Source: Escherichia coli (GTDB lineage Bacteria > Pseudomonadota > Gammaproteobacteria > Enterobacterales > Enterobacteriaceae). Taken from it: 55,000 bases of DNA. The notes beneath the pieces were generated by a model. It had not been told where the DNA came from and did no database searches. It saw nothing but the letters and a program-made list of their open reading frames with translations. Location of the stretch: the NCBI RefSeq assembly GCF_003334355.1, contig NZ_QOWP01000026.1, one strand, 5' to 3'. Below are positions 1 to 6,124 of the stretch, piece by piece. Numbering within the stretch: position 1 is the first letter of the stretch; each line of letters begins with the position of its first letter. The translations under genes were made by a program, and so were the position numbers.

Positions 1-145
1 GATATAGCCTATATGCCTATGATGCGGAGGAATGAATGTGATGGGAGTGATGTATCTGAATAGTTGAAAAACCGCAGTCACGTCGTATGCAAGAACGTGC
101 TGCGGTTGGTTTGACTTTGATTGAGACGTTTTGGAATTTTTTTTG

Positions 146-197
146 TGGCAAAAATGGGGCAAAACGCTGCAAAAGGGGCAAAAAAGGGGCAAAAAAA
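146..197. repeat. Short tandem G-tract/A-tract motif, about five copies of a 9-12 bp GGGGCAAAA-like unit
   Basis: Read directly: gtggcaaaaa / tggggcaaaa / cgctgcaaaa / ggggcaaaaaa / ggggcaaaaaaa in tandem. No ORF of 60 aa or more covers it. Confidence 0.6.
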
Positions 198-492
198 GAG
201 TGGATTATCGTAGTTTATTGTTCTCGCTGATGATGTTTAACACATTGAAAAATAAGTAAAACACTTATGAGTCAGATAGTTGTGATTTTTGCCCTTACTT
301 GTTCAGGTTGTATTGTTCTTTCTTACTAATTTCTTGATTTTGCGACATTTAAAAGCGACTCAATTCGTTATATGGCATCAGAAGAGTATGCGTCATGCCG
401 GAACGCCCAGCATAAGAAATCTGATATAAAAAACTGTGGCGTGTATGGTACGGATTAGAGGGGAAAATGTCAGCACATTTGCGAAATGAATC

Positions 493-520
493 AAAAAGCC
501 CGCAGCAATGTGCGGGCGTT
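493..520 (-). terminator. Rho-independent terminator downstream of uspF
   Basis: GC stem gcccgca/tgcgggc with a T-run on the minus strand, immediately 3' of the uspF stop. Confidence 0.6.
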
Positions 521-524
521 AGTG

Positions 525-1040
<516 letters not shown>

Positions 1041-1099: not shown

Positions 1100-2233
1100 T
1101 TAGAACTGATAAACCAGACCTAAAGCGACAATATCATCGGTAGAGATGCCATTGGCAGCGTAGAAGCTGTCATCTTCATCCAACAGGTTGATTTTATAGT
1201 CAACGTAGGTGGACATGTTTTTATTGAAATAGTAAGTCGCGCCAACATCGGCGTATTTAACCAGATCTTTATCATCAACACCTGCCGGGTTGTCTGCACC
1301 ACCCGCAGCGTGCAGGTCACGGCCTTTAGACATCAGGAAAGAGACTGCCGGACGCAGACCAAAATCAAACTGGTACTGTGCAGTGACTTCAAAATTCTGG
1401 GTTTTGTTTGCCACAGCATAATCGCTGTCGCCAAACGGGGTCATATTACGCGTTTCTGAATACATGGTTGCCAGGTAAATATTGTTAGCATCGTATTTTA
1501 GCCCAGCAGTCCACGCGTCTGCTTTATCACCACCCGCCGCAGTATGGTTAACCTGGTCATTGGTGCGGTCAGAAGAGGTGTATGCCGCACCAGCGCTAAA
1601 GCCCATGCCTAAATCATATGTTGTGGAAAGACCCCAGCCGTCACCGTTTTCATGGCGAACATCACGTCCGTTGTTGGTGCCTTCCTGACCATTACTGGCT
1701 CCTTCGTTGTTACCTTGATACTGCACCGCGAAGTTCAGACCATTTACCAGACCGAAGAAATCAGTATTACGATAAGTCGCGACGCCATTGGCTCGACCAG
1801 TCATAAAGTTGTCTGCATTGGTATAAGAGTCACCGCCAAATTCAGGCAGCATATCGGTCCAGCCTTCGATGTCGTACATTACGCCATAATTACGTCCGTA
1901 ATCGAAAGAACCGTAATCTGCAAATTTCAGCCCGGCAAATGCCAGACGGGTCCATGACTGGTTTTTTGAAGATTCAGTGTTGTTTGCCTGAATATTGTAT
2001 TCCCATTGACCGTAGCCAGTGAGTTGATCGTTAATTTGGGTTTCGCCTTTAAAACCCAGACGCGCATAGCTCTGGTCGCCATCTTTCGCTGAATTATCAG
2101 AAAAATAATGCAGGCCATCAACTTTGCCATACAGATCTAATTTGTTGCCGTCTTTATTATAAACTTCGGCTGCATGTGCAGCACCTGCGGCGAGCAGGGC
2201 AGGAATTAAAAGTGCCAGTACTTTGCTTTTCAT
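1100..2233 (-). CDS. ompN: Outer membrane porin OmpN (OmpC/OmpF family)
   Basis: 377 aa ORF with signal peptide [21 protein letters not shown] and C-terminal ...LVYQF; classic general-porin sequence. Confidence 0.9.
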
Positions 2234-2460
2234 TGAATAAATCCTTTAGTTATTTTATTTGCCTTTTATCCCCATTTCGGGGAGTGAAAACATCCTAAAG
2301 GAGAAGTTCAGTTAGCCGATAAATATCATTTGTTACGCCTTAAGTAAAACCTTAATCAAATAATTCCTCTGAAATGATAATAAGTCTGGTGAATGTATCG
2401 AAGATAATACATACAAAATAAAAATTATACTTTTAATTTGCTATACGTTATTCTGCGCGG

Positions 2461-2569
2461 GTTATATGCCTTTATTGTCACAGATTTTATTTTCTGTTGG
2501 GCCATTGCATTGCCACTGATTTTCCAACATATAAAAAGACAAGCCCGAACAGTCGTCCGGGCTTTTTTT
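2461..2569 (+). ncRNA. micC: MicC small regulatory RNA (Hfq-dependent, represses ompC)
   Basis: Sequence gttatatgcctttattgtcacagatttt...aagcccgaacagtcgtccgggcttttttttt matches the MicC sRNA I recall, ending in its own intrinsic terminator. It lies between ompN and ydbK as in E. coli. Confidence 0.9.
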
Positions 2570-2599
2570 TTAGAATTGGATAATCCTTATCCAGAGCAT

Positions 2600-5500
2600 T
2601 TAATCGGTGTTGCTTTTTTCCGCTTTTCCGGCCATTTGTGCCAGGAAGTCATAGCGTTTTTGCAAATCAGCTGCAGCATCTTTCCATAACTGTTCTGCCA
2701 CTTCTGGCTGCTGCGAATTCAGCCGACGGAAACGTTGCTCGTGAAGTAACGTTTCTTCCAGTGCTTCTGACGGCGGGCGTGAATCCAAGGCCAGCGGCAG
2801 TTTGCCTTCATCGGCACGACGCGGATCAAAGCGATATAGCGGCCAGAAGCCGGTAGCTGTGAGTTGGCGCATCTGGTCGTGGCTGAGTGCCAGATCGTAA
2901 CCATGCTCTTCACACGGGCTATAAGCAATGATCAGCGATGGCCCCGGATACGCTTCCGCTTCCTGAATCGCTTTCACCGTCTGGTTCAGCTGCGCGCCGA
3001 GAGAAATCTGCGCCACATAAACATGACCGTACATCATCATACTGACGCCAAGATCTTTACGCGCTTTACGTTTGCCGTGCTCGCCAAATTTAGTTACTGC
3101 ACCCAGCGGTGTCGCTTTCGACGCCTGACCACCGGTGTTGGAATAGCATTGCGTATCCAGCACCAGAATGTTGACGTTTTCCGTCAAACTCAATACATGA
3201 TCCAGACCGCCAAAGCCGATATCGTAAGCCCAGCCATCACCACCAATCAGCCAGATTGATTTTTCCACCAGTGCATCTGCATCACGTAGCAGTTCATGTG
3301 CTTCGGCAACATCGTTGAGTTGCTGGCGTAAAGCTGCAACCTGTTCACGACGAACCTCTGGCGTGGCGTCTGATTTCAACGCCGTCAGTAATTCCGCCGG
3401 GATTTTATCGGCAAATTGATCCAGCAGACGCAGCACGCGGACACGGTGTTGATCGACCGTCAGGCGGAAACCAAGGCCAAATTCGGCATTATCTTCAAAT
3501 AGAGAGTTCGCCCATGCCGGCCCACGACCGTTGGCATCGGTGGTATACGGTGTAGAGGGCAGGTTACCGCCATAAATTGAAGAACAGCCAGTGGCGTTAG
3601 CGATCAACATCCGGTCGCCATAGAGCTGAGTCAGTAATTTAATATACGGCGTCTCGCCACAACCGGAGCAAGCACCTGAATATTCAAACAGCGGTGTAAT
3701 CAGCTGCGATGTACGAATATCAATACGTTCCAGTTTGCTACGGTCGATTTCTGGCAGGTTGAGGAAGAAATCGTAATTGATTTTCTCTTCTTCGACATGT
3801 TCCAGGCGAGACATCATATTGATGGCTTTAATCTCTGGATTCTGACGGTCTTTCGCCGGGCAAACTTCGACGCACAGGTTACAACCGGTGCAATCTTCCG
3901 GTGCCACCTGCAAGACATATTTCTGCCCGCGCATATCACGCGATTTCACATCCAGCGAATGCAGGCTGGCAGGGGCGTTTTCCATCGCTTCAGGCGGCAC
4001 CACTTTTGCGCGAATAGCTGAGTGTGGGCAAGCGGCAACGCAGTGGTTACATTGGGTACAGAGTTCCTCTTTCCAGATGGGGATCTCTTCGGCGATATTG
4101 CGTTTTTCCCAGCGAGTGGTGCCCATCGGCCAGGTGCCGTCTGGCGGCAGCGCCGAAACGGGGAGGGCATCACCAAGCCCGGCGAGCATCGCAGCGGTTA
4201 CGGTTTTCACGAAATCAGGGGCGGCATCGGAAACCACTGGCGGTCGATTGGCGCTGTGCGGATTAACCGGCTGCAACGGAACTTCTTCTACGGATTCACG
4301 CGCCAGCGCCAGAGCCTGCCAGTTGCGTTCCACCAGATCCTGGCCTTTGCTACTGTAACTTTTGGCAATCGCACCCTGCAATTCTGCGAGGGCGCTATCG
4401 CCAGGCAGAATTTGCGTCAGATGGAAAAAAGCCATCTGCATGACGGTATTAATACGGGCCGCCAGGCCACATTCGCGGGCGATTTTCGCCGCGTTAATCA
4501 CATAGAAGCGCGCTTTTTTCTGGTTTAACACGGCCTGAACTTCTTGCGGCAAGCGTGACCACACTTCATCTGCGCTGTACGGTGTGTTGAGCAGGAAAAT
4601 GCCGCCAGGTTTTAAACGCTCAGCCATCTGATATTTATCGATAAACTGCAACTGGTGGCAGCCAACAAAATCAGCCTGGGAAATGAGATAAGCGGAACGA
4701 ATCGGCTGTTCGCTCACTCGAAGGTGAGAAACCGTCAGGCCGCCCGCCTTTTTGGAGTCGTAAACAAAATAGCCCTGTGCGTACCACGGCGTGGAATTAC
4801 CGATAATCTTGATATTGTTTTTGGTCGCGGAAACGCTGCCATCACTACCAAGGCCATAAAACAAGGCTTCCAGTTTCGCCGAGTTTGGCAGGGTGTTTTC
4901 CGGCAACGGCAGTGACAGATTGGTCACATCATCGTAAATACCAACCGTAAAGCGCGCTTTCGGTTTAGCCGCGTTGAGCTCGGCAAATACCGCCAGTACA
5001 CAGTCTGGGCCAAATTCTTTGGATGAAAGACCATAGCGCCCACCAATGACACGGGGCAGAGTTTCGCGCTCGCCATTATTAAAGGCTTCTGCCAGTGCGG
5101 TCATTACATCCAGATAGAGCGGTTCTGCCTGGGCACCGGGTTCTTTGGTTCTGTCCAGTACCGCCACGCTGCGTACGGATCCCGGCAGAGCTTGCAGTAA
5201 ATGTTTAGCGGAGAAGGGGCGGTACAGGCGAACTTTCAGCACGCCAACTTTTTCGCCACGGGTTAGCAATTCATCAACCACTTCTTCACAGGTACCAATG
5301 GCAGAGCCCATCAGGATAATCACCCGTTCCGCTTGCGGATGCCCGTAATATTCAAACGGCTGATACTGACGACCTGTCGCGGCAGAGAAATCATTCATCG
5401 CCTGTTCAACATGGTCATAGACCGCGTTGTACCATGGGTTGGTGGCTTCGCGAGACTGGAAATAAGTGTCAGGATTGGCGGACGTACCGCGGATCACCGG

Positions 5501-6124
5501 ATGTTCCGGGTTGAGTGCCCGGGCGCGATGAGCATCAATTTCGACCTGCGGCATGAGATCAAGAATCGTGTCATCGGCCAGCGGGACAATTTTATTGATT
5601 TCGTGGGACGTGCGGAAACCATCAAAGAAATGAATAAATGGCACGCGGCTTTTCAGCGTCGCGATTTGCGAAATGAGAGCAAAGTCTTGCGCTTCCTGGA
5701 CGTTTGCTGCACACAACATCGCGCAACCCGTCTGGCGCACCGCCATAACGTCGGAATGATCGCCAAAAATAGAGAGTGCATGTGTGGCAACGGTACGTGC
5801 CGCTACATGCAGGACAAACGGTGTTAGTTCGCCTGCCAGTTTGTACAGCGTCGGGATCATCAGCAGCAAACCCTGCGATGACGTAAACGATGTTGAAAGG
5901 ACACCCGTCTGCAAAGCGCCATGCACGGTAGCGATAGCACCCGCTTCCGACTGCATTTCAACCACGCGTGGTGTGTCTCCCCAAACGTTCTTTAAGCCGT
6001 TTCCGGCCCAGGCATCAGCCTGTTCTGCCATCGTGGAACTGGGGGTAATAGGGTAGATGGCGATAACTTCACTGGTGCGAAATGCGACCGAAGCAACCGC
6101 GCCATTACCGTCAATAGTAATCAT
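2600..6124 (-). CDS. ydbK: Pyruvate:flavodoxin/ferredoxin oxidoreductase (PFOR)
   Basis: 1174 aa ORF with two 4Fe-4S ferredoxin-type Cys clusters (CTQCNHCVAACP, CTGCNLCVEVCP) and a TPP-binding region; matches YdbK/Pfo. Confidence 0.95.
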   Translation of the reverse strand: MITIDGNGAVASVAFRTSEVIAIYPITPSSTMAEQADAWAGNGLKNVWGDTPRVVEMQSEAGAIATVHGALQTGVLSTSFTSSQGLLLMIPTLYKLAGELTPFVLHVAARTVATHALSIFGDHSDVMAVRQTGCAMLCAANVQEAQDFALISQIATLKSRVPFIHFFDGFRTSHEINKIVPLADDTILDLMPQVEIDAHRARALNPEHPVIRGTSANPDTYFQSREATNPWYNAVYDHVEQAMNDFSAATGRQYQPFEYYGHPQAERVIILMGSAIGTCEEVVDELLTRGEKVGVLKVRLYRPFSAKHLLQALPGSVRSVAVLDRTKEPGAQAEPLYLDVMTALAEAFNNGERETLPRVIGGRYGLSSKEFGPDCVLAVFAELNAAKPKARFTVGIYDDVTNLSLPLPENTLPNSAKLEALFYGLGSDGSVSATKNNIKIIGNSTPWYAQGYFVYDSKKAGGLTVSHLRVSEQPIRSAYLISQADFVGCHQLQFIDKYQMAERLKPGGIFLLNTPYSADEVWSRLPQEVQAVLNQKKARFYVINAAKIARECGLAARINTVMQMAFFHLTQILPGDSALAELQGAIAKSYSSKGQDLVERNWQALALARESVEEVPLQPVNPHSANRPPVVSDAAPDFVKTVTAAMLAGLGDALPVSALPPDGTWPMGTTRWEKRNIAEEIPIWKEELCTQCNHCVAACPHSAIRAKVVPPEAMENAPASLHSLDVKSRDMRGQKYVLQVAPEDCTGCNLCVEVCPAKDRQNPEIKAINMMSRLEHVEEEKINYDFFLNLPEIDRSKLERIDIRTSQLITPLFEYSGACSGCGETPYIKLLTQLYGDRMLIANATGCSSIYGGNLPSTPYTTDANGRGPAWANSLFEDNAEFGLGFRLTVDQHRVRVLRLLDQFADKIPAELLTALKSDATPEVRREQVAALRQQLNDVAEAHELLRDADALVEKSIWLIGGDGWAYDIGFGGLDHVLSLTENVNILVLDTQCYSNTGGQASKATPLGAVTKFGEHGKRKARKDLGVSMMMYGHVYVAQISLGAQLNQTVKAIQEAEAYPGPSLIIAYSPCEEHGYDLALSHDQMRQLTATGFWPLYRFDPRRADEGKLPLALDSRPPSEALEETLLHEQRFRRLNSQQPEVAEQLWKDAAADLQKRYDFLAQMAGKAEKSNTD

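Follow-up and report, generated by a model that had tools for sequence, protein, structure and literature searches.

The right end of a Rac-like prophage

The window, a 55,000-nucleotide stretch of Escherichia coli DNA, carries close to its first letter a tandem repeat array and the right junction of a prophage, followed by uspF and its chromosomal neighbours. The features are listed below by window position and strand.

130-298 (+): P arm of attR, the phage-derived attP module; empty-site genomes match only from 299
145-155 (+): repeat unit 1, GTGGCAAAAAT, degenerate candidate arm-type site (GTGGCA)
156-165 (+): repeat unit 2, GGGGCAAAAC, consensus candidate arm-type site
166-174 (+): repeat unit 3, GCTGCAAAA, degenerate (GCTGCA)
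175-185 (+): repeat unit 4, GGGGCAAAAAA, consensus; the unit gained or lost between strains
186-197 (+): repeat unit 5, GGGGCAAAAAAA, consensus
238-250 (-): IHF-like site between array and core, TTTCAATGTGTTA, one mismatch to WATCAANNNNTTR; a consensus match only
287-295 (-): inverted partial copy of the motif, AGGGCAAAA, 3 bp from the core; maybe chance or part of a core-type site
299-324 (+): attR common core, 26 bp, TTGTTCAGGTTGTATTGTTCTTTCTT; identical 26-mer in attL (L004 11348-11373)
295-348 (-): displaced native ttcA 5' end, 17 codons plus stop ("ttcC" remnant), B' side of attR; read from the sequence, and annotated as ttcA in empty-site genomes
525-956 (-): uspF
1100-2233 (-): ompN
2458-2578 (+): MicC small RNA between ompN and nifJ/ydbK, where it is expected (Rfam RF00121, 125 bits)
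2600-6124 (-): nifJ/ydbK

Where does the chromosome end and the phage begin? When window 1-520 was compared by megablast with 5,426 complete E. coli genomes, the matches fell into discrete classes. The whole query is matched in 871 genomes, in others the match starts only at ~136-143, and in many it starts only at 299, where the 5' end of an intact ttcA lies directly beside uspF. Because prophage-free genomes match only from 299, window 1-298 is an insert, namely the right-hand end of a Rac-like prophage. In both the source strain CFSAN064036 (100% identity) and K-12 derivatives, this insert forms the right end of Rac, and ttcA-intR-xisR lie ~20 kb further left, at the far end of the prophage. 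For Rac, this 26-bp core was already known (Liu et al. 2015, PMC4632033), and the same core is annotated as att in Rac-SA53.

An earlier note on this DNA, made from the letters alone, had placed a prophage boundary near uspF in K-12 and suggested aligning the region against E. coli genomes. That alignment finds a boundary at 299, and the note was right: the right junction of Rac, attR, occupies 299-324. The note's description of the array as lying downstream of uspF is correct as to position, but the repeats belong to prophage DNA and are parted from uspF by the core and the displaced ttcA end at 295-348. Its further thought, that the array might be a junction remnant, has to be given up; the array is a conserved, ordered part of the attachment site.

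In Rac types with other upstream DNA (O157, O111, sit-carrying, Rac-SA53), similarity sets in at ~136-143, approximately at the start of unit 1. Within the P arm no conserved element lies farther out than the array, which is 102-154 bp away from the edge of the core; its first unit is where homology between Rac sub-types sets in. It stays with the att module though the adjoining genes vary, among them ydfK/ynaM, sitA, tail-fibre and NleG-like genes.

Several smaller elements accompany it. A block like ..ATTGAAAA.. occupies the same relative place as the IHF-like site in the attP regions of 933W, phiP27, RothC and group B (a diverged ttcA-type attP, below), and a perfect WATCAANNNNTTR lies in P', 3 bp from the core, with 0.04 perfect sites expected from shuffling. 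The inverted copy at 287-295 has no counterpart in the O157 version. Between the array and the IHF-like site is a second small tandem repeat, TTATCGTAG/TTTATTGTT (205-222, +); the equivalent place in 933W holds AAAGAACG twice, 11 bp apart. Just upstream of the array, a GC-rich, terminator-like hairpin, ACCGCAGtCACGT...ACGTGcTGCGGT (71-106, +; -25.2 kcal/mol, z=-2.56), is confined to the ynaM/ydfK-carrying Rac sub-type. Rfam gave no match at the array and only a sub-threshold CssrB (3' end) match on the hairpin, at 69-104.

A phased array of variable length

Window 141-200 reads ttttGTGGCAAAAATGGGGCAAAACGCTGCAAAAGGGGCAAAAAAGGGGCAAAAAAAgag. Within it, five head-to-tail units of 9-12 bp each span 145-197, at most 1 bp from the 146-197 first proposed, and start at 145, 156, 166, 175 and 186 (spacing 11, 10, 9 and 11 bp). 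Tandem Repeats Finder reports 147-195, with a period of 11, 4.8 copies and a score of 52. The exact sequence GGGGCAAAA occurs three times on both strands of the 55-kb window, and all three occurrences fall inside the array as units 2, 4 and 5; by our own arithmetic, chance would supply ~0.4 in 110 kb. The A-tracts, runs of four to seven A, are centred at ~152, 162.5, 172.5, 182.5 and 194. Their mean spacing of ~10.5 bp agrees with the earlier observation that they lie roughly one helical turn apart. The repeat array is real and non-random. GGG[GA]CA is itself strand-skewed across the whole window, with 26 copies on the plus strand versus 6 on the minus strand; only three of the plus-strand copies lie in the array.

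Is the number of units fixed? The comparison across E. coli genomes that had been proposed shows that it is not: directly read alleles carry two to seven units.

2 units: L135
4 units: L131, L128, L140
5 units: this window, K-12, O157, Rac-SA53
6 units: L235, L236
7 units: L239

The array changes length by whole 11-bp GGGGCAAAAAA units, so that the helical phase is kept. A 189-bp query matched 589 genomes, a number probably limited by low-complexity masking and the 28-base word, and lengths were inferred in an evenly spaced 60 of these. Most have the five-unit length, four are longer by +11 to +23 bp, and three alleles were confirmed by reading. The variation is consistent with slippage on a repeat under loose constraint as to the number of its units.

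Short ORFs cross the array, and RefSeq/PGAP places a "hypothetical protein" over it in some genomes only, with differing lengths (window 87-230, +; L235 287-442; L236 364-489; L239 38-187). Because of the 11-bp length polymorphism, these ORFs are probably spurious. A protein-coding ORF was rejected as the explanation, given frame-breaking 11-bp indels and annotated ORFs that differ in length and position. The initial statement that no ORF explains the repeats is thus upheld, since steps of 11 bp leave no conserved reading frame.

The opposite arm and the uninterrupted attP

The motif is absent from the 26-bp core and reappears at the other prophage end. In attL, the stretch that separates the start codon of ttcA, here supplied by the prophage, from the stop codon of intR includes ..ctaaatGGGGCAAATtGGGGGCAAACTTTGCAACta.. 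(L004 11422-11449), which contains the copies GGGGCAAAT and GGGGCAAAC, 11 bp apart (L004 11422-11441), and then a degenerate third, TTTGCAAC. Their strand is that of the array, their distance from the core is 49-76 bp, and they abut the intR stop codon. Nine IMG/VR contigs carry an uninterrupted attP, in which the array, a spacer of ~90 bp, the core, the P' pair and the 3' end of int follow one another; in one of them, L139, the P arm is nearly identical to that of the window. Searching IMG/VR with IntR returned only 99-100% identical copies, most on contigs ending 3 nt after int, which was uninformative as to diverged P' arms. A scan of IMG/VR for three-unit patterns gave ~25 att-related loci out of 120, the rest being mostly coding or other phage tandem repeats.

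Some of these loci carry further detail. In lysogens, only 51 bp separate the prophage-supplied ttcA start from the intR stop (L004 11397-11449), and the two P' sites fill them. With a gap this short, the hybrid ttcA must have its promoter inside intR, and its expression might respond to Int bound at P'. Two IMG/VR contigs, L128 and L140, have a four-unit Rac-type P arm and the first 14 nt of the core, TTGTTGAGATTGTA, followed by unrelated DNA, GAGTATAAACCGC...; such a joint could have arisen by deletion or could be the attR of a secondary integration site. Together with core variants in the attP contigs, it suggests strand exchange around TTGTATTG. Another contig (L090 1-5000) has an intact attP beside an intR fragment (residues 268-411 only), flanked by NleG-like effector ORFs and an omptin-like ORF, and resembles an att relic left inside a lambdoid prophage that carries effectors.

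The motif in related integrase lineages

A tblastn search of phage genomes with IntR identified relatives of ~40-44% identity among 933W-type Stx phages, Fels-1, phiP27, and Klebsiella and Yersinia phages, and of ~31% in phiCTX. Both att arms were read in five of them (933W, Fels-1, phiP27, Klebsiella RothC and Yersinia 210.17), whose integrases are ~42-43% identical to IntR and whose cores are different, and also in the diverged ttcA-type attP, the "group B" contigs. All six of these further att regions carry tandem TGGGGCA/TGGGACA on both arms. The motif was chosen after seeing Rac, and the other six lineages were examined afterwards.

In 933W, which targets wrbA, the P arm repeats TTTGGGGCACTATTGGGGCAAAATG to give six sites 128-201 bp from the core, and the P' arm, with two copies of the motif, has TGGGGCACGTCTGGGGCACG beside int. 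In Fels-1, phiP27, RothC and Yersinia 210.17, both arms contain TGGGGCA or TGGGACA in pairs spaced by 11 bp; these four and the diverged ttcA-type attP have 2-4 P-arm copies and 1-2 P' copies, group B having four on the P arm and at most two on P'. In all seven lineages together, GGG[GA]CA was counted 23 times in P arms versus 0.59 expected (2,017 nt) and 13 times in P' arms versus 0.23 expected (790 nt), or 36 copies versus 0.8 with both arms pooled, expectations being derived from the window's frequency of the motif. Neither arm of any of the seven lineages has a copy on the opposite strand (36 vs 0). Neighbouring copies are mostly 11 bp apart, otherwise 19-20 or 30 bp.

What is it that these arms have in common? 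Because the cores and target genes differ among the phages, the motif tracks the integrase family and not the crossover site. At the greater distance of phiCTX (31% identical Int), the layout is retained with a different repeat, TGGGAACA. The P' copies and those of 933W (GGGGCACG, GGGGCACT), like many in phiP27 and RothC, are without A-tracts, which makes the G-rich half, GGGGCA, the conserved element. We propose, tentatively and at somewhat less than even odds, that (T)GGGGCA in tandem 11 bp apart is a shared arm-site code of enterobacterial lambdoid PF12167/IntBPP-1 integrases (Rac, 933W-type Stx phages, Fels-1, phiP27 and relatives), whatever the target gene.

In the group B contigs (L033, L042, L055, L057, L061, L062, L069 and others) the attP has the core AGCTTATTCAGGTTGTACTGTTCTTTCTT and adjoins a SRAP/YedK-like ORF. 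Only ~60 C-terminal codons of an IntR-like gene are recognizable in them, and this arrangement is seen again in many contigs.

Predicted curvature

Phased A-tracts were the reason for the original suggestion that the array is intrinsically bent DNA, and curvature was computed with our own implementation of the Bolshoy-Trifonov and AA-wedge models. Both wedge models predict a bend. The array is the most curved spot of the window, ranking at the top of 54,950 positions in each model, with 48.6 and 46.9 degrees (two 20-bp arms); the median is ~10 degrees, and the 99.9th percentile lies at 38-39. Its ratio of end-to-end to contour length is 0.69 vs 0.97 for shuffled sequences, none of 500 shuffles being as low. 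It has at least four A-tracts of at least four A at ~10.5 bp, the pattern used to define phased A-tracts. The suggestion of bent DNA therefore stands as a prediction. Of the outcomes that the note said would refute it, neither an invariant copy number nor a lack of predicted bending was observed. High curvature is predicted also at the K-12, O157, six-copy, group-B and Fels-1 versions; in phiP27, RothC and Yersinia 210.17 the predicted peak does not fall at the repeats. As modeled, the bend is a credible property of the Rac-type array, perhaps aiding arm folding; the family's conserved feature is the G-rich half-site. For Rac and its kin, phased A-tracts might do the work of a bend that a protein would otherwise impose on the arm.

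What reads the repeats?

At its N-terminus IntR has an Arm-DNA-bind_2 domain (PF12167, residues 5-69, E=4e-26); SAM-like and catalytic domains come after it. Its AlphaFold2 model (mean pLDDT 80) has three strands and a helix at residues 8-55 (pLDDT 75-91) and aligns over ~400 columns with full-length lambda Int, the C-terminal part matching the Tn1549 integrase best. According to Smyshlyaev et al. 2021 (PMC8138268), PF12167 is the domain with which the IntBPP-1 subgroup binds arm DNA; they term the members of this subgroup putative integrases. The place of the repeats at the junction, their presence in both arms, the domain content of IntR, and a motif and geometry kept across unrelated cores all speak for arm sites. 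From this comparison of sequences, we judge it likely that the array consists of arm-type IntR binding sites in the P arm of the Rac attR, with the intrinsic bend a likely accessory property as far as the curvature models indicate. Some evidence runs against this reading. Units 1 and 3 are degenerate, and a unit number of 2-7 means that the exact number is weakly constrained. Moreover, the N-terminal domains of IntR and 933W Int are no more alike than the whole proteins (~47% identity by our own count over the first alignment block, vs 43% overall).

Could the array instead be a purely structural bent element, serving arm folding or local transcription with no protein reading its units? Its rank as the most curved position of the 55-kb window in two models, the high curvature predicted for five other versions, and gains and losses in 11-bp steps that keep the helical phase would all suit such an element. 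However, GGGGCA and not the A-run is what persists across lineages, the P' copies and many of those in 933W, phiP27 and RothC lack an A-tract, the curvature peak of phiP27, Yersinia 210.17 and RothC lies away from their repeats, and curvature does not need a strict single-strand orientation (36 to 0). With the G-rich half conserved and the motif in both arms and across cores, sequence-specific protein binding is favored over curvature alone. Curvature is also compatible with Int binding, which makes this a partial rather than a full rival, and as a complete explanation we regard it as improbable. A neutral origin by microsatellite-like slippage where the prophage ends, or derivation from a piece of a small ORF, would account for the polymorphic copy number of 2-7 and for the PGAP hypothetical proteins annotated across it in some genomes. 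Such an origin sits badly with the persistence of motif, orientation, 11-bp spacing and two-arm layout in phages whose att regions are otherwise unalignable, and with 11-bp length changes that break any frame and leave putative peptides of low complexity and variable length; we consider it highly improbable.

If a protein does read the units, why not the excisionase? In this alternative the repeats would be binding sites of the excisionase XisR (an RDF); such factors typically polymerize along a helically phased series of direct repeats on a single att arm and so bend it. The tandem layout of the Rac P arm is excisionase-like in this sense and resembles the sites of lambda Xis, L5 Xis and P2 Cox. 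XisR belongs to DUF1233, as does 933W Xis (35% identical), and this RDF family travels with the integrase family; because the two excisionases are homologous, conservation of the motif module alone cannot separate Int from Xis. Against this, excisionase sites are expected to keep to a single arm and to lie inward of the arm-type sites, towards the core. Here both arms carry the motif, the array is outermost, and in every lineage examined the motif stands beside int in the P' arm, which is not where lambda-type RDF sites lie. XisR does bind a fragment containing attR: in the EMSA of Liu et al. 2015 (PMC4632033), His-XisR shifts the "AttR" fragment and not "AttM". The primers in the supplement of that study map AttR to window 130-422 and AttM to 9-298, and both contain the whole array. 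Since AttM was unshifted while holding every unit, the array alone did not bind XisR in that assay. The tandem repeats at 205-222 and the 933W AAAGAACG pair are candidate excisionase sites and better placed than the array, yet AttM, which includes 205-222, was negative for XisR. We regard the assignment of the array to XisR as quite unlikely.

How would IntR use these sites? On the arm-site reading, IntR would be a heterobivalent tyrosine integrase whose C-terminal domains act on the core at 299-324. Its N-terminal arm-binding domain would recognize (T)GGGGCA(A) in the array units at 145-197 and in the two or three attL sites. By bridging arm and core sites, IntR would fold the arms onto the core to give an excisive or integrative intasome. 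Bends at the IHF-like sites (238-250 and the perfect P' site) would aid this folding, and the intrinsic curvature of the A-tracts probably would too. We infer, then, that the N-terminal domain of IntR binds the array, that the sites are needed for recombination, and that curvature contributes.

Comparison with known systems

In lambda, the attP core lies between two IHF sites, and these are flanked in turn by arm sites that on one side end at int. The arm-type sites are P1, P2 and P'1-P'3, with the recognition sequence C/AAGTCACTAT, and P1-P2 lie at a similar distance from the core as the Rac array. The Rac attachment site resembles this plan in having candidate accessory sites on both arms, ~100-160 bp out on the int-distal side and ~50-85 bp on the int-proximal side, where they end at the int stop. 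Adjacent direct repeats lie about one helical turn apart in both, with IHF-like sites between arm and core sites, and the IntR model has the three-strand-plus-helix N-terminal domain of lambda Int. Unlike lambda, Rac would have (T)GGGGCA(A) as its recognition motif, and its arm-binding domain is of another family, PF12167 of the IntBPP-1 subgroup. The Rac P arm holds a contiguous run of five (2-7) phased A-tract units, whereas lambda has two sites split by an IHF site. The candidate Rac sites are also all in one orientation.

With the attP regions of 933W, Fels-1 and phiP27, Rac has in common the integrase subgroup (~43% identity), the motif, the 11-bp pairs and the two-arm layout. The target sets them apart, ttcA for Rac versus wrbA, yecE and others for 933W and its relatives; the cores differ as well, and the A-tracts of those phages are weaker or absent. 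In 933W, unlike Rac, the P-arm units form a 31-bp super-repeat of two sites each. Seen as DNA structure, the array is like phased A-tract bent DNA of the kinetoplast type and like curved promoter-upstream elements, with A-runs every ~10.5 bp and extreme predicted curvature. Unlike kinetoplast-type bent DNA, it sits within a recombination site, and each A-tract forms the 3' half of a conserved, G-rich candidate protein site. With its phased direct repeats, the P arm also brings to mind RDF arrays such as X1-X1.5-X2 of lambda and the Xis sites X1-X4 of L5; unlike these, the Rac motif is on both arms, and the AttM fragment that holds the array is not shifted by XisR (PMC4632033).

In the searchable literature, an older description in subscription journals being possible, we came across neither a map of arm-type sites for IntR, 933W Int or PF12167 integrases nor a footprint or EMSA with an integrase N-terminal domain on these sites. 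Read as arm sites, the array is an expected component of known machinery, apparently unmapped for IntR, and calls for no new principle.

Implications

Rac is among the most widespread E. coli prophages and is still able to excise. Its excision alters biofilm formation, motility and the N-terminus of TtcA (Liu et al. 2015, PMC4632033). So far only the 26-bp core has been described, and the candidate accessory sites would complete the map of attR, attL and attP with arm, IHF-like and core sites. Such a map would point to the natural alleles, from two to seven units, in which excision proficiency is worth comparing. The array also explains the recurrent spurious annotation of a "hypothetical protein" at this end of the prophage.

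Beyond Rac, the repeats provide a candidate recognition motif for an abundant integrase subgroup that includes those of Shiga-toxin phages. One arm-site motif seems common to Rac-type and Stx-phage integrases with different targets. If the code is shared, the integrases of co-resident prophages could occupy each other's sites, coupling or hindering the excision of otherwise unrelated elements. E. coli O157:H7, with a Rac-like prophage at ttcA and 933W at wrbA, is an example of such co-residence.
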